Assembly: GCA_043228905.1 (NCBI GenBank)
Contig: JBHGNT010000005.1
Location: 5,146,001-5,210,000, forward strand
Direction: 5' to 3'
From: Azolla caroliniana
Lineage: Eukaryota > Plantae > Polypodiophyta
Length of the DNA: 64,000 nt
This document shows, piece after piece, positions 4,281-63,183 of the stretch. Made by a program: the position numbers and the translations under genes. Position 1 is the first letter of the stretch; the number at the start of each line of letters is the position of its first letter. Below the pieces are notes generated by a model, which searched no databases, had not been told where the DNA came from, and was given only the letters and a program-made list of their open reading frames with translations.

Positions 4281-6499
4281 AAAAGAATCCGTGTAATAGG
4301 AAAGCTAGAAATGTGGGCAATTCCAATGAGGAGTTTTGAAGAAGAGGCTAAATATCAACTTCCTTTTTATTATAAGGATCAGATTGGTTTAGCTTCTCCT
4401 TCACCATTTCCACATTCGTTTCGAAGGTCTTTTCCTTCTTCCTCTTCTTTGTTGTTTTTCCCTTTATGCTAACTAATGGGCTCTCATATCTTACAGCATT
4501 TTTACAGTCAGTATTTTTTAACTTGTAATGAAGTTATAAAAAAATTTGCATTCAAAAGTTTTTGTAACTTTAGTTCTATGGGATGATAATCCATTATATA
4601 TATATATTTGTTGTGCTAAGATTATTGATTGATTCAGTTGATTATGGATTTGTCTTATAAAAATGTAAATTTTGTTAAGAGTCACATTGACATTTAAAAT
4701 TGAATGGTTGTCTCCAGAAACCATAGTTGTGGTTAGAGAAAGCGAAAACTATTAATGTTGTCGAGAGAGAACAGAATGATGTTTGTGGTTGATATCGTAA
4801 ATTAATAATACTAAGCTAGTGTTGTCAAGTGCATAAAAAAGGATGTAAGGCCACTGTTGGTTTGGTTTGTTCGTGAATAGGTGGTTTTGTACTTGGAACG
4901 ATACAAAAAAACTCTGCATCCTGTTTTCCTTCTTGCTCCCAACTTGTTTATGGTTGGTGTGATGTGTTAAGGCACTTCAAATGAACTTTGGTATGATTTT
5001 GAATGGTGTTATGAATAGTGTCATGTTGACTTTTGGTCGAGTAAAATCTTGTGACTTTCACATGTGAAATACTTTCCTCAATCATGACTTATGGGCATAT
5101 GTTTGGTTTCTTTGCAAAAATGGGAGAGAATACATGTTCTTTCCTTGCAAATGGTGGTTTCAAAGCCCAAGGCAAGCAACATTTAAGAATGTAAAATATT
5201 TGTAAATAGTATTATTGGTATATGTACTTTTTCGTTCATTTTTGCGAAATGGTGTACATTTACGTCAACCTGAACCAAGATGTTTGGAAACCTACAAAGG
5301 ATCACATCTGGACCCCCCTAATCACTTATTGTCATTGCCATGCCATTGAGAGCCAAACAAGCAATCACTCTTGTTTGAACTTGCGACCACGGCTAGGCCA
5401 TTGAAAGTGGAGCGTGCGAAATTTATGTTAAGGGATGTTGTTGATTGTGGAGGTTGTGAGCTTGAATGTACAACAAGAGCCACTATTCAATGCCTTGTGA
5501 AATGTTCACTTTTGATTTTAGGTTATATTTGACCTCCGAGGACAACAATGAAATCTATCTATCTCTATACCTAGACAATGAAATCTATCTATCTCTATAC
5601 CTAGACGTAATTTTCTCACAATCACAAAGCACAATCTCAAATGTAGAGTTCATTTATAAATTCTTCAATTTCGAGATCACTTATAAACTTTGTATGTATG
5701 ATATGAAATCCAAGGATAATTATAAAATCTACTTGCCCATCTATTTATCTTTGCCACAATATTTGGGATGTAGATGGTTTAATTACAAGTACTGTTTGTG
5801 TACACAAACTATAATTTAGTAAGTGTTTAGTTTATTTGGTTTGTTTTTAATGGTGTACATTGTCGTTAGTTCATATATTTTAAATTATGTGATTCAGATC
5901 TATTGCTACATGGTGACTCAAAAAGTGAGGTTACAACTTTCTAGTTTCATGAGAATCTTTGTGTAATTTAATAGGTTCTATAAAATTTTCATTTACAATT
6001 GTTTAACATAATGTTACTTAAATTTATGACATATAGCTTCTAGCACATGTATCATAACTTTGTTGAGAATAGGTAAAGAAATAAAATTATGAAAAGTGTA
6101 CGGTATAGTGGGTTGTAATAAGCTGTGCGATTTAACGATGCTTGTCTCCTCTTGTGTCATTTCTCAACCAGACAATGAATCTTTTGCGGTTTGAGATATT
6201 TCATTAGACTCTAGGGGCATGTTTCACTTTGCCAATGGTAACAATTGTGGAATCTTGTCAAAAAGAGGAGTCAACCAAATCAAGAAAATCAAGATGGGGG
6301 GGTTAGATAGAACTTATACTTACCAATAGTCTAATTCATGGAGGAATCTATTTGTCCATTGTGAAGTTGAACAATATCAAAGGGAAGAAGAGAAGAGGGA
6401 AATAAGAGAAAACTAGTGGTATTGAATACGTCGAAAACTGGTGTTGAATCAAAATGGTTCATTGATGACTAGAGCACCTGCTTATATAGCATGGTGGGA

Positions 6500-6692
6500 T
6501 TCGTGATTAAATGGTTCAGTTTGGTTTCAACTTTTCCTTAAATAGTTTGTTTGAATGGATTAGGTTTAAATGACTTGGTAGTTCTTATAGGGTTGGTTTA
6601 GTTTTTGTTATGTATAAATAGTTTGAGTCAATTTGGTTTGGTTTCAAGACCAAGAAATAGAACTAAACCAAAACCAAATCAGCCCATACGTA
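6500..6692. mobile_element. Partial copy of an AT-rich AAACCA/GGTTT-repeat MITE-like element
   Basis: Dense GGTTCAGTTTGGTTT / AAACCAAA motifs, with similarity to the reverse complement of 9510-9680. Confidence 0.55.
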
Positions 6693-7645: not shown

Positions 7646-8045
7646 CGGGGAAGTTACACTTATGAACAATACAATGAGGGATGATTAACACAAATCTAGC
7701 TTAAAGACCGTTCTCTATATTAATAAACATCCAATTACAAAAATACTTATAATGAGGTATATATACATCTCATGTAGAAGGGTGCACATGTGAGAGGAGA
7801 ATATAGGTACAAGGATATAACTCCTATATTAAATGAACTTGCTAGTGGGGGATCTAGAAAGTATCCCACTTAGTACAAGATACAAAATCTTATTTAAGGC
7901 TTTAGAGTCAACTTACTAACTAGATCCTATCTATGAACTACTAAGTTACATGGTTGACTAAATGACTAAATCTAGTTGCGCTTGGTATGTCAACATGCCC
8001 CCTCAAGCTTAAGTGTGAGGTTCAATAGGCGGCGATGGTTGGCTA

Positions 8046-8782
8046 TCCGGTTTAATTGTTTGGGTTGTCCGACCTCAGGTCCAGCTTTCGGCATGCGACT
8101 CATGTTAGCTCTTGTCCGGCTTCCGGCTTTCGACTTGCTTCCCACCCCCTCAACCTTGAGATGTCGAGTGGTTGAAGGCCGAGTGCCATCGAAAATGGTT
8201 GAATACTATCCGCTCTATGTCATGACATAGTCCGGCTTAATTGTTTGGCTTGTCCGACCTCGGGTCCAGTTTCGGCATGCGACTCATGTTAGCTCTTGTC
8301 CGGCTTCCGGCTTTCGACTTGCTTCCCACCCCCTCAACCTTGAGATGTCGAGTGGTTGAAGGCCGAGTGCCATCGAAAATGGTTGAATACTATCCGCTCT
8401 ATGTCATGACATAGTCTGGCTTAATTGTTTGGCTTGTCCGACCTCGGGTCCAGTTTCGGCATGCGACTCATGTTAGCTCTTGTCCGGCTTCCGGCTTTCA
8501 ACTTGCTTCCCACCCCCTCAACCTGGAGATGTCGAGTGGTTGAAGGCCGAGTGCCATCGAAAATGGTTGAATACTATCCGCTCTATGTCATGACATAGTC
8601 CGGCTTAATTGTTTGGCTTGTCCGACCTCGGGTCCAGTTTCGGCATGCGACCCATGTTAGCTCTTGTCCGGCTTCCGGCTTTAGACTTGCTTCCCACCCC
8701 CTCAACCTTGAGATGTCGAGTGGTTGAAGGCCGAGGGCCATAAAAAATGGTTGAATACTATCCACTCTATGTCACAACATAG
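8046..8782. repeat. Tandem array, four copies of a ~184-bp unit
   Basis: Anchor TTAATTGTTT at 8052, 8237, 8421 and 8605; units nearly identical. Confidence 0.97.
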
Positions 8783-9244
8783 TGACATCAAATATGTAGT
8801 TAGTGAGGATTGAACCCACAACCTCACATCTACAAGACGTCATGCTCAACCATTTGGATATGAGCATGTATTTGTATATAATAGAATATTCTAGTATATA
8901 TACATTCCAGAATATTCTAGAGCCTTTTGTGTATTCGAGAAATATTCTATGGTGTATTCTAGACGGGTATATTCTAGAGATACTCAATCTCAAAACTTGT
9001 ATAAATACTTGTAACCTCCCTGGTCCCTTTCAAGGGATTCAACATCAATCATTGACACATCAATCTAGTATTCTCGTTCTGCCTCATCTTTGTCTCCTTG
9101 ATGTTTATTTCTGTCTTCACGCCTTAATGTCGCTCACAACATCTAGAGTTCCTAGCCTCGTCACATCTAGCTCCAAGTTCATCTGTCGCTTGTAGCCCCA
9201 TCATTTGTGCTCCGTCCTAGTCCGCGTTTGTTGTGTCTGTGACA
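8770..9244 (+). mobile_element. Solo LTR with an antisense tRNA-like segment near its 5' end
   Basis: TGTCAC...GTGACA termini; perfect TSD CTCTA (8765-8769 / 9245-9249); TATAAATA ~9000. It interrupts the copia RNase H C-terminus and is homologous to 62769-63183. Confidence 0.9.
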
Positions 9245-9496
9245 CTCTAAGCACTTTGATGAAGGATATCAACCGCTTGTCGATCAGTGTCGACGTGCTG
9301 GAGATCGATGTCTCCCGCGATGATGTGTTCCCAAACATAGTGATAGTGCACCTCAATGTACTTTGTTCGGGCATGGAAGATCAAGTTTCAGGCTAGTTGT
9401 ATGCTACTCAGATTGTCGCAGTAGATACAGACCCGTTCATCAACCAATTCAAGTCCTTCAACAACCACTTTAGCCAAATTGCTTCACAAGTGGCTA

Positions 9497-10064
9497 AGGC
9501 TAGCAATGGGCCATGTTCGGTTCAGTTTCTTTGCCTTGAAACCAAACCGAACTGAAACAAACCATTTATATAAAACAAAAACCAAACCAAATTGTTTATT
9601 AACTTTCAAGCCATTAAACCAAACTATTTAAACCAAAACCATTTAGGGAAAAGTTGAAACCAAACCGAGCCATTTAATAAAAAGTTTAAATAAATAAAAA
9701 TAAACTAAATTAAATAAGCATTTATGTTTAATTAATTAATTAAAGAAATAAGCATTAATTAAGCCATTAGATTAAATAAACATTTAGGTTAAGTGAATTA
9801 AATCAATAAAAAACATTAATTCAACCAATAAATTACATAAACATTTAAGGGAAGTTAGCTCAAAAACCTATAAACCTTTAAACCAAACCACTTAAACCTA
9901 TAAACCAATAAACCCCAGTTTCAGAACCAAATTGAACTAAAACTGAACCGTTTATTAATAATTAAAACTAAACCAAACCATTTAATTATTTTGGAACTTA
10001 TAAAACTTTAAACTTGGATTAACGGTTTGGCTTAGTTTGTGCCGAAGCCAGGCCCATTGCTAAG
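9497..10064. mobile_element. AT-rich MITE-like non-autonomous element inserted at TA in the copia RNase H
   Basis: Inverted repeat TAGCAATGGGCC (9501-9512) / GGCCCATTGCTA (10051-10062); TA on both flanks; removing it restores EYRGMAIATCEA; internal AAACCAAACC repeats. Confidence 0.85.
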
Positions 10065-13000
10065 TATGGCCATGCCCCTGTACTCCACTTTAGTGCTAGA
10101 CAATGCAATTGTTGGTTGCTTCTTGCTACTCCCAGAGATTGCTTCGCTTCCGAGTGAGAAGACAAAGCCAGATGTTGACGATTGAATACATTGTCGCCCC
10201 AATCAACATCAGTGTATCTTTCCAGTCGTGTAATCGGTCTTGTCTTGTAGAAGATTCCCCGATTCATGGTCCCACTAACGTATCGTAAGACTCGCTTAGC
10301 GAAATGCAAATGTGTGTCTCACAGTGTTTTCATGAATTGGCTAAGGAGGCCGAACAGATAGCTAAGATCAGGGCGCATAATAGTTAGGTAGATGAGACTC
10401 TCGATGTTTTGCCGATATTGAGTTGGCTCACATGGTGTGTCGGAGTTCGCGTGCAATTTCATCGTTCGATCGAGGAGAGTCGATATTGGCTTGTGGTCCG
10501 TCATGCCGAACTTAAACAAAAGTTTCAAGTTGTAGTGGTATTGGGAGAGCATAATGCCGGTGCTAGTTTGGATGACCTTGATTCCCAAGAAGTAATGAAG
10601 TTCATGGGTGTCTTTCATCTCAAACTTCCCGAAGAGGAGCATCTTGACCTTGTTGATGTTGGTTAGGTGTCACCACCAATCACTAAGTCATTGACATATA
10701 TGCTAATGAAGATTCGATTGTACTTGAGTTGCTTTGGATAAACAAATAATTGTTGGATTTAGACATCTGAAAGCCGATTCGGTGTAGAAATTGTGTGATC
10801 TTTGAATGCCAAGCCCGTGACGCTTGCTTTAGGTCATAGAGGGGCTTCTTGAGTCGGCACACGACATTCGGATGTGATTTTGATTTGAAGTCGGATGGTT
10901 GTACCATATACACCTCCTCCTCTAGTTCGTCTTGGAAGAACGCATTCTTCACGTCCATCTAATGAAGATGCCACCCTTTGGCCACCGCAAGTGCTAGCAC
11001 CGTCCAGATAGTAGTCATCTTTGCTACCGGGGCAAAGGTTTCTTCGTAGTCGATGTTGTGGGTTTGAGCATAACCCTTAGTCACAAGCCGAGCTTTGTAT
11101 ATATTGATGGAGCTATCGGCGTTGTGCTTGATTTTGTATATCCATTGGCAACTAATCTTATTGTGTGCTAGAGGTTCGACTAGCGCTTGCATTTCTTCAC
11201 ATCGGGGGTCACAAGCCACGTCCGTAAAGCTTTTGGGATCTTGTTTGGCTGTGACCATCATGAAGGCATAATGGTGTGCCACATACTCATTGTAGTCGAA
11301 TTGGGTTACCGGATTCTTCTCTTTGGACAAGCATCGAAGTTTCTCGTTCGTAGATGTCCACGCCTTCTTTATGCCAAGGGTCGAACATAATGGGCACTCA
11401 AAACTCATTGTCTTGCAAGAGAGCCGACACGTCCAAATCGCTTTCGTCGGAGTGGTCGAATTCATATTCAGGCATTTTACCTTTACCTTTGTCCGATTCG
11501 GCCCAAGGTTGTGAAGTGCTTTGGTTGCTTGGAGGCTCTCGTGGTCCACTCATCATGGTTGAGCTTGGACTTTCATTAGGTATAAGCCTCAACCGAATGT
11601 CGTCCTCTGAATTGATGTCCAACTTTTCCTCAGTCGGGCCTGATTTAGTTCATACCATGATGTTGATTTGTCGTAGACTACATCCCGACGTACTCAAACC
11701 GTTTGGATAGAAGGATTGAAGGACTTGTATCCCTTTTGTTCGGACAAATATCCCGCGAGAATGCATTTCTTCGACTTTAGGTTGAGCTTCTGTCATCTTT
11801 CATTTGGAATGTGTACATAGGCTATGCTTCTGAACACTCTCAAGTGTGATAGATTTGGACATTAGTGGTACACACCAATTCATCAGATAGACGGTTGTTA
11901 ATGCCCCTTCAGCCCAATAGAATTTCGGCATATGCTTCTCATATAACATGGTGCATGCTACCTTGAGTATTTGCCGATTCTTCTGTTCAGCTACTCCATT
12001 TTATTGTGGTGTGTCGGCACGAAAATTCTCTCCTTATTCCTTCATTTTGGAGGCATGAGATAATTTCTTCAGAGAAGTACTCCTTTCTCCATCTGATCGT
12101 AAACAACGAATATACCGGCCTATTTCTTTCTCGACCTATTTCTTGAGCTTTTGGAAGTGGAAAATCACTTCACTCTTCTTCTTCTTCGAGAAGATAAAAG
12201 TGTACCGAGAGTGGTCGTTGATGAAGGTGACATAGTATCGGCACTCTTTGATCGTCAGCGTTTGAGTTGGTCCCCATACGTTTGAGTAGATCAAATCAAG
12301 GAGGCCGTTACTTACATGTCTATCCTCTGGGAATGGGAGTCGATGTTGTTTGCTGAGTTGACATGCTTCACACACTCGGTCGACTTGTTTCGACTCAAAG
12401 GCTAGAAGTCCAATGACAGACTCCCTTCGACTACATAGCTTGGAGCCATTGGTACATTAATAAGCATCCGGTCACAAAAATACCTATAATGAGGTATATA
12501 TACAAGGATTTAAGTCCTATATTAAATGAACTTGGAAGTGGGGGATCTAGAAAGTATCCCACTTAAGTACAAGATACAAAATCCTATTTAAGGCTTTATA
12601 GTCAACTTACTAACTAGATCCTATCTATGTAACTACTAAGTTACATGGTTGACTAAATGGGTAAATCTAGTTAAGCTTGGTATCTCAACAAAATCTAATA
12701 TGGCTAAGAGCTCGTTGTGAATCTCGTAATTGATTTCATAAAGTTCAAGTTTCCATGAATGAGAAATGATTGGATAGAGATCCATGTTGTCTTCGATTGA
12801 TGACAAGACACTTTTGAGTACATAATCAAACACATAAACTTCCAGAATAAAGAGCATCATCAGCTAAACATGATCAAAATTAGGACAAATGTAAATGAAT
12901 GCTTCAAGTTTTACGATGCGTTCATTGCATGTAAAATCCATGTAATGATTGATTCTTATGTGAAACTTGTGTAAGGGGTCGAGCCATCTTCAAGTATTTC

Positions 13001-14409: not shown

Positions 14410-15176
14410 GGAACATGAACTTGGTTGGTAAGTGTTCTACATTTGTAAGAATGTGCATATATATTCTTGTTCAACTACCATGGTCAGGAGAACATAGGGC
14501 GAGAAGTTTCTCAACAAAGATGAAGAAGAAGGGTAAATTCCAATCCAAATTGTCAAAGGCCATGAGTGTAAACAAGATTGAATTGAGGAAGAGAATAAGA
14601 AAAAAGAGGAAAATAAGATAAGAATGTGGTTGGTAAGTGTTCTAGATATGTAAGAACATGCATATATTCTCATTCCATTACCATGGTTACGAGAAAATAG
14701 GGCAAGAAGTTTCTCGAGGTAAATTCCAATTCAAATTGTCAAAGCCATCGGTGAGAACAAGATTGAATTAATTGAAGATGAAATTTAGAAAAGAAGAGGC
14801 AAATAAGAAAAGATTGAATTGAAGAAGAGATTAAGAAAAGAATGTGACCTGTAAATTAACAAGAAAAATAACCTCACAAGAATATATCGAAGACTAACGT
14901 TAGAGCCGAAAATAGTTCATTAATGACTAGAGTACTTGCTTATATAGCATGGTTGTACACACACATGCTCCCCATCTCCCATCATGCATGATAGCCATTG
15001 GGCATTCATGCAAGCATGCCATTTATTCGTCATGTGTTAGCCTATGTTAGTCCTAATGGTTGAGGTTTCGGCATCCTCCAAAGGCGTCATAGGTTCAAAT
15101 CTCATAATATTAGTCCTAATGGTTGAGGTTGTCGACATCCTTCAAAGGAGTCATAGGTTCAAATCTCAATATAACA
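14410..15176 (-). mobile_element. LTR-like element (left boundary uncertain) with a duplicated tRNA-like module and an internal ~200-bp duplication
   Basis: Ends ATAACA (rc TGTTAT). Minus-strand TATA (rc of GCTTATATAGC ~14938). Shares GTTCATT.ATGACTAGAG.AC.TGCTTATATAGCATGGT with 6456-6494. A 63-bp tandem pair starts at 15048 and 15111. Confidence 0.55.
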
Positions 15177-16711: not shown

Positions 16712-17139
16712 TGTCAGGAATAGTACTAAAGCAGAGATGGAATTAGTACTAAAGAAGAGCAGTACTATTAGTACTAAGAGGACGGGACTGCGTAAGATTC
16801 CCGAGAGAGGAAGTGAGAAGAGAGATAGCGAGAATGAGAGAGAGAGAGAGAGAGAGAGAAAGCCTCTTAGTACTAATAGTACTGCTCTTCTTTAGTACTA
16901 TTCCTGACAGTTTGAACCAATTTGGTTCAAAACAATGCCTTGTGCCTCCTTTTATAGTGTTTTTAGGAATAATCCTGAAGCTTCTAGAATGTTCTAGAGA
17001 GATCTAGAATATACATCAATTTTCTATGATAAAACATAAATGAAAATAATATTTTATAAATTACAATTCATAGTCTAATGGTAAGAGCTTGACCCATGTA
17101 GCATAAGGTCATGGGTTTGAGTCTTGCCATATCATGACA
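16712..17139 (-). mobile_element. Solo LTR with a long internal hairpin and a tRNA-like segment
   Basis: TGTCAG...ATGACA termini; decayed TSD GTTGC/ATTGT (two transitions); TTCTAGAA repeats as in the 8770 LTR; minus-strand TATAAA ~16951-16956. Confidence 0.7.
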
Positions 17140-17576
17140 ATTGTTACATCAAACATGGAAGTGAGACTGTCAACCTTTGTTGCGATTTTCTTTGTGTTTT
17201 CCCATTGAATATATGTTCCAACTTGAAGTTTGTGCTTCACATCATCATTTTTTGTTGCAACTTATACAATTTCCCCAGTCTCTATGGCATCAAGAAAAAA
17301 AACCCGCATAACCAAACTCATAGAAGAAGCAAAAAAATATTTCAAAACATAGTCGAATTCTTCCAATTCCTTGACATAATAAGTCTTAAGATTTTTAAAT
17401 AACGTATTAATCCTAGAAGAAATTCAAATTACCATAAACATTATGAAAATCTTATAATAACGTTCTCGCACTAAAGTCTAGTTCCTTGATTGAGTAATTG
17501 GTCTTTTCCCCTGTTGTGTTTGCCCCTTCTTTGTCGTTTTCTAGATGGTTGCTCATTTTCCCTAGTCTCTTTTACC

Positions 17577-41743: not shown

Positions 41744-44700
41744 CACACACATAACTCATATCTCTTCCGCTTCACAAGAATCCATCTCTTGATTCTTTAC
41801 ACAATGTATGTAAGAAGTGCGTCTTATAGTGGGACATCTTTGTACCAAGTGGTATTTTGGGGCTGATCCATGTTATCTTGTTTTCCAAGTTAATAATATC
41901 AGTCCAGATCACTCTATTCTTTTCCACTTTGGTCATATTTAGGTGGGGACAATCCAAGCTATATATTGGAACGACGGTAGCGCATTTATACTCATGCCAA
42001 AATGTCTTATTAATGTCTTATAAGAGGCCAAAATGACCTATAAGACCAAACAACCGATTAAATCTTAAGTGTTGTCTTTTTTTTGAGAACCCAAAGCACC
42101 ATTGATCCTCATATTCCATTACCTTGCGAACTAGGCTAAAGCCTTGTTTAAAGAGGCAGTGATATCTCCCTCTTATTTGATAAAAAACATTACAATGACA
42201 AACATAATGTTCTTCATATTCCAATAATTGATGACACAATTGGCAAATTCTTTCTTATAGTAGTATTCACGCCTACTTCAATCTCTAACTGGTGTGATGC
42301 AGTTCGCAGCTGCCCTATCACACTGCACAGTGCATGGGTAGATAATGTCCATATAAGATGGTCTCGTGATGAATCCATCCTCCGATGAGTGTGAAAAGTG
42401 TCTCTTACTCTGGGCATCTTCCTACCAAGTGATATTTTGGGGCTCGTCCATGTTATCTTGTTTTCGAAGTTAATAATATCAGTTTAGATCACTCTAATTC
42501 TTTTCCACTTTGATCATGTTTAAATGGGGACACCCTAAGCTATATTAAAACGGGGGTCGTGCATTAACGCTTATGCCATGTGAGTGACTAGAACCATTGT
42601 TGCATTTCAACATACCAACAATGAATGTCTCCATGTTCAGCAAGTTGTTTTGATGACAAAAGTACCAACCTTCAATACCTTCTGTTAGAGAGCTCCCACA
42701 ACCGTTGGATACAAGTCATAGATCAGAATAATGCCTCAATGATTATTGGGGCTGCTCCCATCTCTGCCCAGATCATATCATGGGGCCTTGATGTTTTGCT
42801 CTTTATCATGCGGAAAACCATTGAAACTAAAGGTTTCTGTATATCTTTCCAATTATTTTCCTTGTTAAGACTTAGCCCCCATGTTTCTACTCAATATATA
42901 AGAGTTGCTTTGACACATATATCAAATAAACACAGTTTAGTTTATAGTTCTTGGAACTGCAAATGTGTGCATTGTCTTTCGAGTGCACCACGGATGGCAT
43001 ATCCACCAGAAAGTCAGGCACAAGCATTTTCAGGCTGTGCTTCTGAAGACGCATAAATAATCCACACAGGCTTAGGAGCACATAAGATTTCTAAAATGTT
43101 CAAATAGAAATAGCATTTGACTTCAATAAACATGTATGCATTTTGGCAGAAATTTACCCAGGTAATGGTAGTACCACATCACTGATGTTAAACTTTGCAG
43201 ATGCCACATCCTCAGCTGTTGCATGCTGTTTCAACGTAAAAACTCAAAAAAAATTAGCACCATGAGTCTTACAGTTGTAATGAAAAAAAAACACAAATAA
43301 TATTGTGACTAAATGACAGTATATGCATCATAATAACAATGGCCAACCAGAAAACCTTTTGTATGACATGACATGTGCACACAAAATTTGTCTCTTAAGA
43401 GAAGCACAGCGCGAATCATAATAAAAAAACATGGGCTGCATGTTATGAATATTACAAGACGCCATGCACCAGTACGTACTCTAAACAATGGCACTAAGTC
43501 CAACACAATAACATAGCCAACCACAAAACCTTTCATATGGCATGACATATGCACACAAAATGTGCATGTAAAAGCATGTGCTAATCATAACAAAAAACAT
43601 GACTGCATGTTATGAACATTACAAGATGCCATTCATGTTATAAATTTTACAAGATGCCATGCATTTCCAGCATAAATTAATATTTTTTTTTAACCATATA
43701 ATCCTCAAATTTCTTATGGTGCAAGAACTTCAGATACTTGAATTGCAGAGGCAGGACACCTAAGAGATCCTTTCAAGTCTGCAGTAAGTAAGAAACTATC
43801 ACTAAAAGCCACATGACTTGTGCCCAAAACTATGGGAAGAAACAAAAACTGAGGCAATTAGGTGAGGGCATGTCAATTTCAACTGCATTACCCCCGAAGC
43901 ATAGCTACACTAAAAGTAATATTTTACCTTAACTTTCTGAAGGAAATCCATCGCAACAACAACACTGCTGTCATCCCCTTCGCCGTCAATTACCTCAGCA
44001 ATATCACTCTCTTCCTCTTGCAAAGCTTCAGTTTTCTGCTGTGCTGTACCATTTGCATCATTTTCATCATCTTTACAAAGTACTAAATCTCCTTCAACTA
44101 CTTTATCAACCCCTGAAACCAAAGATAAAGCAAAATTAAGAGAAATGATTTCTATTAGAAATATTGAGAATCGAGTAGATAGGTATATAGAGTTACAACT
44201 GCAGAGATGGATATATGAAAACAGAATTTCTATTACATATGAGAGTAGTTCAAAATGGTAGTTTTCCCATGCGCTCACACCTTAGAGCTTAGATAGGATA
44301 TGGACCGGCTCACTACAAAATTAGTGGGGACTGATGATCAATCTGACCACTGTGTGAGAAAAGTGACTTATAATCTATGTTTGGTCTTAGTATAAATGTG
44401 CAAGTCAGTTGACAGTAGTGGAGATATTCCTTTTCTGTCAACTGACTTGTCATTTAATATGACCCAACTCCCTAGGTACAGGCTAGTGCTAGATAATACT
44501 TATCTTGAAGTCAATGACGCATACTTCAAGACTAAGTACATCGTAACTTGCCCACAAAATATTCTAGCTGACTTGATTAGCCAATCCTTTTATCTATTTC
44601 TCTCTTTCCTAAATATGTTGTGTCCTACGCATCTACGGTTTCCTAGATTAACACCTTATCGACCCATATGGTCGAGTTGCACACTAGCCGCTCCTCATTT

Positions 44701-47700
44701 GGGGCGCTATCACAAAATGTGCACTCTAAGAGCACATATGGGGATAGATTTACAACTTGGGGCTGATCATTGATTATATCTAACACGCCCCCTCAATGAT
44801 CAACCCATTGAGTTCACTTGGAATTGGGCCAACACCTAGTCGTCGAAGGTGTTGTTGCAACTGTTCTGCTCCAAGCGCCTTTGTGAAGATATCTGCAGCA
44901 TTTTCTGATGTTGGACAGTACTCAAGCTCCACAATCTCATCATTTATTAGCTCCCGCACATAGTGATACTGAATCTCTATGTGTTTAGTACGTGCATGAA
45001 ATACGGGGTTCTTGGCAATGGCCATACAACTCTGATTGTCACACCTCAATACCGTTGCCGTCCTTATTGGGACTGCCACATCCATAAGGATTCTTCTTAG
45101 CCAAACTACCTCGCATGCCGCTATGCATGCTGCTTTGTATTCTGCCTCCGTTGAAGATAGTGCCACTGTTGGTTGTTTTTTACTACTCCATGAAACAGCT
45201 CCAGATCCTATTGAAAAACAATATCCAGAAACTGATTTTCTGGAATCACTATCTCCAGCCCAATCGGAGTCGCAATATCCACTAAGTTGGTCAATTGTTG
45301 GCTTGTAGAAGATTCCATAATTTAAAGTACCCACAATGTACTTTAATACACGTAGAGCAGCTTTCCAATGAGTCTCCTTCGGCTTGTTGCTGAATCGACT
45401 CACCACATTGACTGCAAAACAAATATCCGGCCTAGTGTTGCATAGGAAAATTAGACTTCCTACTAGTTGTCTATACTTCCTTATGTCAACCATTGGTGAT
45501 GAGTCTTCTTGGGATAGCTTGCAGTTTGACTCCATTGGAGTCGACTTCGACTTGCTGTCCATCATCCCGAAGGTCTTCAAGATCTCTGTTGCATACTTTC
45601 TTTGTGACATGAAGATGCCGACCGAGGTTTGCCAAACCTCAATTCCAAGGAAGTAGTGTAGAATCCCCAAGTCTGTCATTTCAAACTCAGTTTTCAAACA
45701 CTCTTGTGTTTGGCCAATGCACTCTTCATGGTCACCAGTAAGTACTAGATCATCCACGTAAATGATAATGATGACTTGTTTCCCGTCCTTCATTTTGACA
45801 TACATACTTGCATCCGAAGCACATTGCTTAAAGTCGATTGATCGTAAGAAGCTGTCTATCCTCTTGTTCCAAGCTCTTGGTGCTTGCTTTAGACCATATA
45901 GTGCCTTCTTCAGCTTGCAAACTTTGTTTTCTGAATTCGGTATCTCAAACCCCGGTGGTTGTGTCACATATACCTCCTCCTTGAGATGCCCATTCAGAAA
46001 TGCTGATTTGACATCCATTTGATAAATCGGCCATCCTCTTGAAGCAGCCAACGCTATGACCATTCGAATTGTTGTCATGCGAGCTGTCGGGGCAAATGTT
46101 TCTTGTACATCGAACCCTTCAATTTGGGAGTATCCTTGCGCTACTAGCCTGGCCTTGAATTTCTCCAAAGAGCCATCAGCTTTATACTTTACTTTCCATA
46201 CCCACTTCGTGCCTATCACCTTCTTCTTTGTTGGCCTCTCTACCAACTCCCATGTGTCATTTTTCATGATGCTATCATATTCTGATATCATCGCCTCTTT
46301 CCACTTCGGGTCGGCCATAGCTTCCTCCACCGAGGTCGGCTCACTCACTGAGCCTATGATGTCCACCATCAGAGCCATGTTGACAATGTGGTCAGAGGTT
46401 CTTCCTTGCTCCTGTATTCTTCTTGATCTTCGTAATCCATCAGTTGAAGTTTCAGGAAACTCAACTTTAGGAGTATGATCATTGAAGAGTTGTTGAGCCC
46501 ACTTAGGTATTTTCTTTACATGTGGGACTGGCATAGGCTGAACTAGTGAACCATTACCATCAGATGGTTCAGCTTCCTTTTTTGGATAATGGGTCGGGAT
46601 TGGGTAAAATACTTCTTCAGTTGATGAGATAACTTGAGAATCGTTGTTCTCAGCTAGCTGTGGTTGTTCCTCATCGAACACCACATCGCGGCTTGTCAAT
46701 ATCTTTCTTGCCTCTGGATCGTAGAGTCGATAGGCCTTTGACTCTTCACTATATCCGAGAAAGATACACTTTTTGCTTTTAGCATCCAACTTCTTTCTGC
46801 TCACATCTGGAATATGTGCGTAGCACATACACCCAAAGGTTCTGAAGTGCAGCACTGAAGGTTTCTTGCCTGAATAAGCTTCTTGGGGTGTTTTCCCTTG
46901 AAGTGCCTTCGTGTAGCTCCGATTGAGGATGTAAACTGCTGTGTTCACTGCTTCAGCCCAGAATGGGTCGGGCAGCGCTTGTGCCTTCAACATACACCTA
47001 GCCATCTCGACAACTGTTCGATTTCGACGTTCGACAACGCCATTTTGTTGTGGGGTGTAGGCAGTTGTAAGTTGGCGCTTAATTCCATGCTCTTTGCAAT
47101 ACTCACAGAATTCTATTGATAAGAATTCTCCACCTCGATCAGAGCGTAGCTCCTTCACTAACTTTCCAGACTCTCGCTCGACAAACTTATGCCATCTTTT
47201 GAAGATTTTAAAAGCTTCAGCCTTCTCCCGAAGGAAGTAAACCCACATCTTTCTGCTGAAGTCGTCGACTATTAGCATATAGTAGAGAGATCCACCCATT
47301 GCAGGAGTCACCATTTTTCCAGAGAGGTCAATGTGTATTAGCTGTAGAGGAGTCTTTGCCCGATTTTGACTCTCTTTTGGAATGGCTGATCTTTGATGCT
47401 TGCCCATCATACAAGCATCACAAACATGACTTAAGTCAGATAGGGTTGGCAACCCAACTACCATATTCGACTTCTTCATCTCCTTCAACACAGCAACGTT
47501 GAGATGCCCAAATCTCTCATGCCATTGCTTTGTGTTGGTACTTGTGCCGTGGTCAGTAGAAATGGTAAACGCGCTCAGCTCATAGAGATTGTTGCGCCTC
47601 ACCCCTATTCCTACAACCTTGCCAGCAGAATCTGTTATTTCTGCACCCGACTTCTTGAATCGAACATCAAGACCCTTGTCAGTCAGTGCAGAAATGGACA

Positions 47701-50700
47701 GTAGATTCTTCTTCAGATCTGGCACGTACAACACTTGAGAGAGATGCTTTGTCCCACCGGTCGTTGCTTTGAGGGAGACGGTTCCGGTTCCTTTGGCCGG
47801 ACATCGAGCATTGTTTCCGACCACAACATTGATGGGCTCTTGTAGAGGTGTCCAAGAACTGTACCAGTCACGATTACTGGTCATATGTCGGGATGCTCCA
47901 CTATCGAGAATCCAAGACTCATCAACAACTTGAGTGTCAACTGAAGAACACACTTCTTCAGTTGCGACCCATAACTCTAGTTCATCTACGACATTGTTAG
48001 CGGACTCGGGCTCTCTCCAAGAAGTCTTATTAGAACCATTCTTCTCATCCGCCATCTTCTTTCGACAATCCTTGATTGTGTGACCCTTCTTGTCACAGTA
48101 GAAACACGATCCATTGAACTTCTTCTTCTTCGGTATCCTATTCGCATTGTTTGAATTGGATGCCCCTTCACCCTTAGTCCTAGAGACAAATGCTGAATCT
48201 TCCCTTTCTTCTCTTGTCTTCAGCCGAAGCTCCTCTTCAAGCAGCATTGCACTTAGTTCATCAAATTTTAAAGGAGTGGGTCGAACCTGAGTGTTCAATG
48301 CTGTCACAATGCCATCATACTTGAAAGGAAGTACTCGAATGCACCGACGAGCCATATCCTCTTGAGAGACGACTACTCCAACAGCCGCCAGCTGATCTTG
48401 AAGATCCTTAATCCTTTTTACAAAGGATTCTACTTTCTCTCCATCAGCGAGCTTCTCTGCAGCAAGCTGATTTTCGAGGTTTTGTATCCTTGTATAGTTT
48501 CTGGTCTCATACTGGCTGGCCAATATGCTCCAAGCTTCATGTGCCCTAGTTGTATGTTGCACTAGTGTTAGTACAGAGTCACATACACCAGTGACTATGG
48601 TACATAGCGCATCAGCATTCCTTCTCTTCCAGGCTCGAAGTAGATCAGCATTTGGAGGAATTGATGTGGTAGGGTGTGCAGGGTCAAAGGTTGCCATGGG
48701 CTCAGGGTCTCCCCCTGTGGGTCCCATGATTGTTTCCAACAACTCGTAGGAATCCAAAATGGCAGACATTTTGAACTTCCATAGAGTGTAGTTGGTTCCA
48801 TCTAGCTTTCCATCAGACAATGGAGGTGGGCGAATGCGCAATGGAGCAGCTGCAACATTCGTGGACAAGGCCATTGATACTCTGTCTCTCTGTCTCTCTC
48901 TCTCTATTTCTCTCTATTGCTAGACAGCAACTACCCGTATATACCTAATCTAGATCAACCTCTTCGCTCTGATACCATATTAGAAATATTGAGAATCGAG
49001 TAGATAGGTATATAGAGTTACAACTGCAGAGATGGATATATGAAAACAGAATTTCTATTACATATGAGAGTAGTTCAAAATGGTAGTTTTCCCATGCGCT
49101 CACACCTTAGAGCTTAGATAGGATATGGACCGGCTCACTACAAAATTAGTGGGGACTGATGATCAATCTGACCACTGTGTGAGAAAAGTGACTTATAATC
49201 TATGTTTGGTCTTAGTATAAATGTGCAAGTCAGTTGACAGTAGTGGAGATATTCCTTTTCTGTCAACTGACTTGTCATTTAATATGACCCAACTCCCTAG
49301 GTACAGGCTAGTGCTAGATAATACTTATCTTGAAGTCAATGACGCATACTTCAAGACTAAGTACATCGTAACTTGCCCACAAAATATTCATACGAAACAA
49401 AAAATTTATTACAGAAGAGTTATTTTGGAAGTCAAATCCAGTGTATGTCAGAACTCAAGCAAAATATAGGTGAAAAATATGACTTCTCTATAATGTCTTC
49501 CATAATACTCACTTCTGGAAAGTCAAATGTGTACAATGGTGTATACAACAAATACAACAGGAACAGAAACTACAATCAAATTTTGTGACTCTGATGGTGA
49601 AAAAGTCTGCAGATTAGACCACAATTATATGATTAAAACATTATTGGCTATAATCCACAATTGACATTCCCTGTTAGATAGTTTATTGTGGCTAAGTGGA
49701 CATTTGTAATACAACATTTCTCTTTTATTCCACAACTTACTAAGTTTGAGGTACTTTCTTTTAATGCTAATTGAAGTTGAAAATATTCTTTCTTCTGAAT
49801 CATTTTATTCTGTCAGGGTAACAAATACAGTACACAAGCTGGCATGTTTAAGTTTATTGACCAACGTATGGCAGGTATAGCCTTTCCACCAATTGAAAAT
49901 AGTGCATTCATGAAAGGGTACCACATATAAAATATCATGTAATTTGTTCTGACAAGTGGATTCATTTCAAGGATGTATCTTTCTGAGGTCACATCCATGT
50001 CACATGACAATAGGCTTCAGTAGAAGCTAATCTGTCATGCTTGAGATATGTATCTAGCATTCATAAGTATAAACCTAAGGCTCTACCACTCATTTATTAC
50101 TTTGATGCACACTTTAGAAACAATATTCCACAGAACTATCCAAGCTGAGATTTATTAGAATCTTTTCTTTAGGTGGGTACTATTCAGTAGATTCCATATC
50201 CAGGTATAACCCAAACCAAATGGGTTTCATTTATAAGTGCACTTTATGGAAATTTTACACTTCCAAATCAAGATATAGCCTCAACACATTAGGTCTGATT
50301 TAAGTATAGGTAACTTGTCATCATTATGCCATGACTCCATGGGAAGATTGTAGCTTAATATAAACATGTTTGTGATGCTTTATTGTAGCTTCTTTTCATA
50401 TAGTTTCTGTGTTTATACATACAAAGAGAAGTATTGTGGAATTTTGCTGAAGGAGTTCAACTACTTTTGCATCAAGATAAAACTGAAAATTACTGACAAT
50501 ATACATTGTAGTTATTCCCAAAAGAATGATTGGCATAAAACGGAGTCATGGCACAAAAATAAGCATTCCAGATGTGGAAAAGGCAATTGTAGAGAATTAT
50601 GCAAAATTATCACTAGAACATCATTGCAATTATCATTATAATAGTTTCTATTATATCATTATAACATCGATTAATCATAATTAGAACATCCTATTGTCCC

Positions 50701-62768: not shown

Positions 62769-63183
62769 TGTCATGACACAGTGACATCAAATACATATTT
62801 GGTGATGATTGAACCTACAACCTCGAATCAACAAGATGTCATGCTCAATCATTTTAACATGACCATACATTTATATATAATTGTGTAGTATTCTATAGTC
62901 TACCGTATAGTACATTTCAGAATCAGAATATTCTAGTCGTTAGTATATTCTAGAGATATTCAATCTCGGAACTTGTATAAATACTTGTAACCTCCTCGAT
63001 CCCTTTCAAGGGATTCAACACTAGTCATTGACACATCAATCTAGTATTCTCCTTTCATGCCATATTGTCTCCTTGATCTTTATATTACTTCCTATGTTTA
63101 TAGTCTTATCGCTCACGACACTTATCAGTTGTAGCCTCGTCATCCGTGCTACATCCCAGTCCGCCATTGGTGTGTTCGTGACA
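62769..63183 (+). mobile_element. Solo LTR of the same family as 8770-9244
   Basis: TGTCAT...GTGACA termini; TSD TTACG/TAACG; colinear similarity (GTGACATCAAAT, GATTGAACC, TGTATAAATACTTGTAACCTCC, CCCTTTCAAGGGATTCAACA, CATTGACACATCAATCTAGTATTCTC). Confidence 0.88.

Follow-up and report, generated by a model that had tools for sequence, protein, structure and literature searches.

Cassandra and Helenus are LTR elements in which a captured Pol III promoter drives, or is proposed to drive, transcription of the element itself. A solo LTR at 8770-9244 of the 64-kb window (the whole stretch of DNA analyzed here) raises the question of what such a promoter would be doing when it faces the other way, since a tRNA-like module lies inverted near the outer end of this LTR, beside a TATA promoter that has been kept. 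In that arrangement the module would have a different job, if it is functional. The original prediction was that several LTR families in the window share an antisense tRNA module in U3, which could transcribe outward into flanking DNA or recruit TFIIIC. Here, we describe the module, its host LTR and its relatives, and weigh what it may be for.

Results

The solo LTR and its insertion site

The element at 8770-9244 (plus strand) starts with TG, finishes with CA and is flanked by a perfect 5-bp target-site duplication (TSD), the bases at 8765-8769 being identical to those at 9245-9249; the predicted TSD-flanked solo LTR is therefore real. It carries what we call a type A head in U3, and its orientation follows from the polypurine tract (PPT) and primer-binding site (PBS) of related complete copies. 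Summed depth of contigs from four runs (three organism labels) matched at 80%, a value that is not a copy number, ran from thousands to hundreds of thousands over 8770-9244 and stopped exactly at both termini. The insertion target was the RNase H end of an older, broken Copia element on the minus strand (7716-12690), which retains an LTR pair (7802-7995 and 12495-12690, 92%) and pieces of RVT_2. Overlapping the upstream edge of the LTR, four 184-bp tandem copies on the plus strand (8046-8783) each consist of 170 bp of the old Copia end and 14 bp of the inserted LTR. Since these repeats include the first 14 bp of the LTR, the duplication occurred later than the insertion. An AT-rich, MITE-like repeat is present in two opposite orientations (6506-6663 and 9520-9678), one copy breaking the RNase H of the old Copia and the other splitting an LTR-like piece at 6350-6500.

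Elsewhere, the window holds an intact minus-strand Copia (44153-49389) whose polyprotein frame stays open for >1300 aa and whose LTRs are 100% identical over a 412-bp stretch, the 5' LTR being shorter than the 3' LTR. A B box within one mismatch was looked for in the LTR of this element and was absent, and the module was likewise absent from the other LTRs in the window. Glycosyltransferase-34 and SOSEKI domains are also encoded in the window and identify the host as a plant; SOSEKI is a land-plant gene.

Detection of the module and the role of chance

The module occupies 73 nt (8795-8867, minus strand), antisense to the LTR and within U3. An Rfam search of 131 nt matched the tRNA model RF00005 at full length over 8795-8867(-) with 14.9 bits (gathering threshold 29; E = 0.91 across 4227 families). 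As predicted, A- and B-box words lie on the opposite strand: an A box at 8850-8860 (tRNA positions 8-19, one mismatch) and a B box at 8806-8816 (tRNA positions 52-62), with 36 nt from G19 to T54. Both boxes were scored against general consensus patterns. A tRNA covariance-model score on the heads, by contrast with what had been predicted, did not reach significance, being at most 15 bits against the gathering threshold of 29. One type B copy scored 15.2 bits, the sole match among related loci, and no tRNA match was obtained with Rfam on 17040-17160, on locus L001 or on 20 whole loci. Scans of the whole 64-kb window returned no tRNA with Rfam at E ≤ 10 and no tRNA gene with ARAGORN, and ARAGORN on 60 of the 69 related loci described below returned one gene, which is not a module. 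Thus, the modules have neither the maintained cloverleaf stems nor the above-threshold model score of a tRNA gene. L054 contains a tRNA-Ser(CGA) gene of normal appearance with a T run behind it (562-642), ~0.9 kb from a family LTR.

A relaxed box pattern found four matches in the window vs. a mean of 1.5 and a maximum of 5 in 40 shuffles. Under a stricter box score there were nine matches, four of them the modules cited in the original prediction, and the damaged module of a sister LTR was overlooked. Random 150-nt pieces reached B ≤ 1 and A ≤ 2 mismatches with a probability of 0.005 (3000 draws), a level attained by most type A heads and both type D heads. A single copy of the motif is therefore weak against chance, and the case rests on its recurrence at a fixed place.

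Family copies, orientation and structure

A 20-base TATA/R pattern was used to search metagenome contigs and recovered 69 loci, several of which are the same insertion or a young subfamily assembled repeatedly, so that counts are not independent. In these loci, 23 of 81 LTR matches, type A included, have a purine tract (PPT) that runs directly up to the TG of the module end, and a conserved sequence follows the CA end of the LTR at 17 junctions. Locus L008 displays the full order of 5' LTR end, PBS, internal region, PPT and 3' LTR with a type A head. This placement of PPT and PBS establishes that the LTR reads along the plus strand and that the module is antisense in U3, as had been claimed; it also rules out a plain Helenus element with its LTR read in reverse.

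The full-length parents turned out to be complete, non-coding copies of ~2 kb (L003, L008, L011 and L046), the non-coding call coming from sequence reading and a six-frame motif scan. LTR-to-LTR units measure 1.2-1.9 kb plus an LTR of 0.4-0.5 kb and often form tandem arrays. An autonomous coding partner was not found in the 69 loci, where nearby pol pieces resemble insertion targets. The arrays in L003, L011 and L046 mix LTR variants of the non-coding element, whose internal region there has a TC-rich part and ~40-50-nt tandem repeats. In L028 and L069, the U3 head of an LTR occurs a second time, inverted and joined within the R of that LTR.

Among 69 U3 sequences with at least 200 nt, 29 had head A, 36 had head B, which possesses its own antisense module, and four had neither. 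Module matches were backed by LTR core in 70 of 72 cases and cut by contig ends in the other two, a figure biased by the choice of loci through their LTR core. Within loci so selected, the module is not an independent SINE insertion, in agreement with the original prediction. At the same junction, two of the four U3s without head A or B (L029, ~270-345, and L048, ~2230-2300, both reoriented) have a third tRNA-like sequence, which is in sense orientation in L029 and in antisense orientation in L048, with 16 identical bases common to both; neither displays an LTR 5' end. These two could be cases of head swapping or SINE/LTR fusions.

Related LTRs in the window

The original prediction also placed the module in a sister LTR and in two LTR-like elements of different sequence (17071-17129 and 15048-15168). 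Modules are indeed present in all three, the one at 15048 in a low-copy element that is a candidate LTR only. The sister, a solo LTR with a type A head (62769-63183, plus strand), is 76% identical to 8770-9244 over 341 nt and has a TSD matching at 4 of 5 bases; both the A and the B box of its module (62794-62866, minus strand) are damaged.

The second element is a minus-strand LTR of very high copy (16712-17139) with a head of type D, a TATA box at 16949-16956, an inverted repeat between R and U5, and a TSD matching at 3 of 5 bases. Its summed depth was 290,000-1,130,000 vs. 33 for single-copy flank. The module (17062-17134, plus strand) is antisense to this LTR and in U3, with one A-box mismatch and a spacing of 35 nt. 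A purine tract of the same PPT form was found behind 17139, in minus-strand reading, in 53 contigs (agreement 0.43; one of two runs). The R region of this second family (16900-16920) repeats its U5 end (16712-16731) in inverted form, a layout that matches the predicted self-priming stem of the first family. The second family's U5 pattern was absent from the prokaryote genomes scanned and from the 69 loci, and neither family's pattern was present in the viral contigs scanned.

The claim that several families share the module thus extends to 16712-17139, with its PPT behind the TG end, and the module is present in three head types of two families, but these families are not unrelated: PPT form, terminal bases, a U3 motif and the inverted R/U5 layout are common to both. 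Because of these shared features, the two families are probably one lineage, and their modules may derive from one ancestral capture.

At 15044-15176 (plus strand), two tandem tRNA-like modules of 62-64 nt each (15048-15168) end at CA. They probably represent the U3 head of an old LTR on the minus strand. The element is of low copy (summed depth 79 vs. 33 for single-copy sequence, at 80% likeness). Around its TATA box (14939-14946), 45 nt are common with an LTR-like piece at 6451-6495, the R part of which is similar to R of the first family.

Conservation of the boxes and loss of the cloverleaf

Removal of near-duplicates reduced head A from 29 to 25 copies and head B from 36 to 23, and removal of copies lacking most of the head (one type A, two type B) left 24 and 21, respectively. 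In type A, the boxes were conserved at 0.93 vs. 0.88 for the rest of the head (P = 0.0075; by column class, P = 0.028 for A/T and P = 0.050 for G/C). Positions 53-58 of the B box matched in 142 of 144 cells, and the anticodon arm was lowest (0.82). In type B, the B box scored 0.92, the A box 0.89 and the rest of the head 0.88 (P = 0.055). These within-type margins are small and columns are not independent. The expectation that the boxes would be better conserved than the rest is borne out by a modest margin.

The comparison across heads used 20 A, 17 B and two D copies, with four A and four B left out for truncation or insertions. Between heads, conservation was 0.67-0.75 in the B box, 0.67-0.77 in the variable loop and 0.14-0.18 in the anticodon arm, and the T-stem strands of A and B agreed at 0.05-0.06. 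Blocks common to different heads are only ~4-6 nt long, and the rest is barely alignable. For both boxes together under free alignment P was 0.10, a consequence of unequal spacing and of a misplaced A box in such an alignment; for the B box alone, a test picked post hoc, P was 0.012. When the A box was anchored, type A mostly had 1-2 mismatches at 35-36 nt and both D heads had one at 35 nt, whereas all 17 type B heads had 2-3 at variable spacing, mostly 40-41 nt. Both core words were kept in 13 of 24 type A and 9 of 21 type B copies. A T4 run lies between module and LTR end in 15 of 24 type A copies and in none of 21 type B copies, and the window copy has only T3. In a short-headed variant represented by high-coverage contigs, ~25 nt of the LTR end are gone and the LTR starts a few bases from an intact B box.

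Structure did not persist with sequence. Pairing is seen in only 53% of cloverleaf cells, a level reached by 482 of 500 shuffles, and in 24% for the D stem. RNAalifold turned up no compensatory pair among the modules, and no fold is shared among them, so the covariation expected of a tRNA fold did not appear. The neat 5-bp T-stem described in the original prediction exists in the window copy but is partly private to it, for 23 of 24 type A copies differ from the window copy at 8817 and the pair is broken in 20 of these 23. CpG decay in type B gave a 12:2 excess of box-tolerated changes, which was equalled by skewed CpG columns outside the boxes. Therefore, the cloverleaf is not maintained; what is kept is sequence, mainly the B box, and the signal is modest.

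Predicted Pol II promoter and self-priming

Downstream of the module, a TATA box (9000-9007, plus strand) marks a predicted Pol II promoter. An 11-nt motif at 9032-9042 (plus strand), the predicted start of R, begins 32 nt after the TATA start, a distance found in 11 of 17 junctions, and is complementary to the PBS of the family. In 11 of 17 LTR/internal junctions, a perfect 11-nt complement of R lies 2 nt after the LTR. R and PBS occur as two sequence variants that co-vary; of the six junctions that miss, four join R of one variant to the PBS of the other, one is without R and one has an extra base. When the predicted RNA was folded from the R motif to the PBS, its 5' end paired with PBS and U5 (z = -4.4), and none of 200 shuffles was as stable. 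As the criterion for self-priming is described in the part of Neumann (2019; PMC6317226) drawn on here, an LTR complement of at least 10 bp stands 0-5 bp after the 5' LTR, and self-priming is reported there for Tcn1 and TAR; the 11 nt at 2 nt found here lie within these bounds. The element RNA is thus predicted to be made from the TATA promoter by Pol II, from an inferred start site, and to prime itself. If so, the module cannot be the promoter of the element in the way of Cassandra or Helenus. That a non-coding element is predicted to prime itself is a useful side result of the analysis.

Discussion

What, then, might an inverted module at the edge of a Pol II LTR do? The reading that we consider most likely, with about an even chance of being right, is that TFIIIC docks at a retained site here, assisting or shielding the adjoining Pol II promoter. 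An ancestor would have captured a tRNA-derived piece, reversed, at the outer LTR edge. The likely donor would be a SINE head or, in inverted form, a Helenus-type LTR: in reverse reading, type A shows the order boxes, T run and CA that is found at the 3' end of Helenus LTRs, which suggests the latter, although no inverted Helenus-type donor was found. Capture of the priming tRNA was considered and rejected by reasoning, as it would leave the module antisense at U5 or sense at U3. The predicted docking site lies ~140-190 bases upstream of the TATA box, and copies that kept the B box would have replicated better. A complex of Pol III factors at the outer edge could keep the Pol II promoter open or, alternatively, shield it from flanking chromatin and read-through, while Pol II made the element RNA from the TATA box and that RNA primed its own reverse transcription, as predicted above. 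In yeast, bound Pol III complexes affect neighboring Pol II transcription, according to the section of PMC4228148 used here. Docking is favored by the type A boxes (0.93 vs. 0.88), by a B box that is alike between heads and by the short-headed variant that keeps it. Several results stand against it: the variable loop, which a promoter does not need, is kept as well as the B box; type B has 2-3 A-box mismatches in 17 of 17 heads and variable spacing; both core words survive in only 13 of 24 A and 9 of 21 B copies; within-type margins are small, with P = 0.055 for type B and P = 0.10 for both boxes across heads; Rfam scores are far below gathering; and the asymmetry of type B CpG decay is equalled outside the boxes.

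Many of the same weaknesses would be expected of a neutral relic, in which one or a few capture events brought in the inverted end of a Helenus-type LTR, or a SINE head, that has since been carried passively; the letters in common would then be universal tRNA invariants inherited from separate donors, or positions that seldom mutate. The small conservation margins (P = 0.055 for type B and P = 0.10 for both boxes), the broken stems and weak Rfam scores, the loss of one core word in about half of the copies, a geometry that mirrors the 3' ends of Helenus LTRs and the lack of a module in other LTRs of the window all speak for such passive carriage. We nevertheless regard it as unlikely, given that the B box persists in three heads otherwise barely alignable, that 65 of 69 U3s have head A or B, that terminal trimming leaves the B box intact, and that repeated capture at the same place and in the same orientation would itself require a benefit. 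The module might instead be an active Pol III gene facing outward, with selection on a short antisense RNA (~85 nt in type A, with a T4 end), on read-out into the flank and the element 3' end, or on transcription itself. The A boxes of types A and D, within 1-2 mismatches at 35-36 nt spacing, and the T4 run in 15 of 24 type A copies are consistent with such a gene, and the portion of PMC3993851 consulted describes A/B-box-dependent Pol III units in foamy-virus LTRs. With T4 in 0 of 21 type B copies, modules that share no fold and only T3 in the window copy, we judge it improbable. Short outward Pol III transcripts are possible from heads A and D and less likely from B. Our assessment is equally low, or a shade lower, for a pairing site in RNA, whereby the module, as a tRNA complement after the PPT, would bind the D and T arms of a host tRNA and aid packaging, dimer formation or strand transfer. 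The model for this is Ty3, where, in the text of PMC5371799 used here, a part of the PBS in U3 pairs with the T and D arms of initiator tRNA. Position, orientation and the retention of D loop, T loop and variable loop would fit, but the family is predicted to be self-primed, and the blocks shared across heads (~4-6 nt) are short for one tRNA.

Docking of TFIIIC thus remains our preferred reading of the family, although the copy in the window is old and its T4 run is gone, so that it is probably inert. A broader proposal, to which we give about one chance in three, is that of a self-priming plant LTR lineage with an outward TFIIIC/Pol III insulator at the LTR edge, the heads being swapped as cassettes and the sites being widespread, solo LTRs included. 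If true, this would be a retroelement with its own Pol III-factor barrier against silencing, abundant enough to shape host chromatin. Whether insulation by TFIIIC sites occurs in plants could be tested simply, by mutating one B box in an LTR reporter.

In the largely open-access literature searched, no description was found of a tRNA-like head inverted in U3. Since "not a few LTRs" in Repbase contain part of a tRNA, in the words of the pages of Kojima (2024; PMC10886601) used here, such elements may already be on file. That paper, in the same pages, describes Helenus/TRIMp3 as tRNA-primed elements of 311-1263 bp, with the module proposed as the element promoter; by eye, it is sense and near the 3' end in 26 complete LTRs and three more, including one from Selaginella. 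Measured against this description, the present family resembles Helenus as a non-coding LTR element whose LTR keeps tRNA-like sequence around boxes A and B without being a working tRNA, and in its 5-bp TSD, solo LTRs, tandem arrays and internal region with PBS and PPT between the LTRs. The module of Helenus is sense at the 3' LTR end, whereas the present one lies antisense where U3 begins, and the TATA box is kept; the present elements are ~2 kb long rather than 311-1263 bp; and their PBS is complementary to their own R, with which it co-varies, rather than to the end or the anticodon loop of a tRNA. The family is set apart from Helenus, as read from these copies, by orientation, length and type of primer, and an antisense module at the U3 edge beside a TATA box appears to be a distinct layout, for which function is proposed. 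Cassandra, as outlined in the same source, is likewise a non-autonomous plant LTR element with a piece of Pol III promoter in its LTR and tandem arrays, but that promoter is 5S-derived, validated and its own, whereas the one here is tRNA-like, inverted and putative.

Parallels outside these groups are each partial, and are drawn from the portions of the cited papers used here. An LTR complement just after the 5' LTR is common to Tf1/Sushi, plant Tcn1 chromoviruses and TAR copia (PMC6317226), for which a tRNA-like U3 head is not mentioned in that portion of the paper. As in the bipartite PBS of Ty3 (PMC5371799), U3 sequence is complementary to the T and D arms of a tRNA; Ty3 primes with that tRNA, whereas the complement in the present family extends over an entire decayed tRNA body, and the element is predicted to prime without a tRNA. 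Foamy-virus LTR cassettes (PMC3993851) also place A and B boxes inside a Pol II LTR, in units that yield miRNA hairpins, unlike the tRNA-shaped, inverted head at the LTR terminus described here. Finally, the ETC and tDNA sites of yeast (PMC4228148) are TFIIIC sites that act on neighboring Pol II, as is proposed here; those are host loci, whereas the present site would be carried as an inverted head at the terminus of an LTR.
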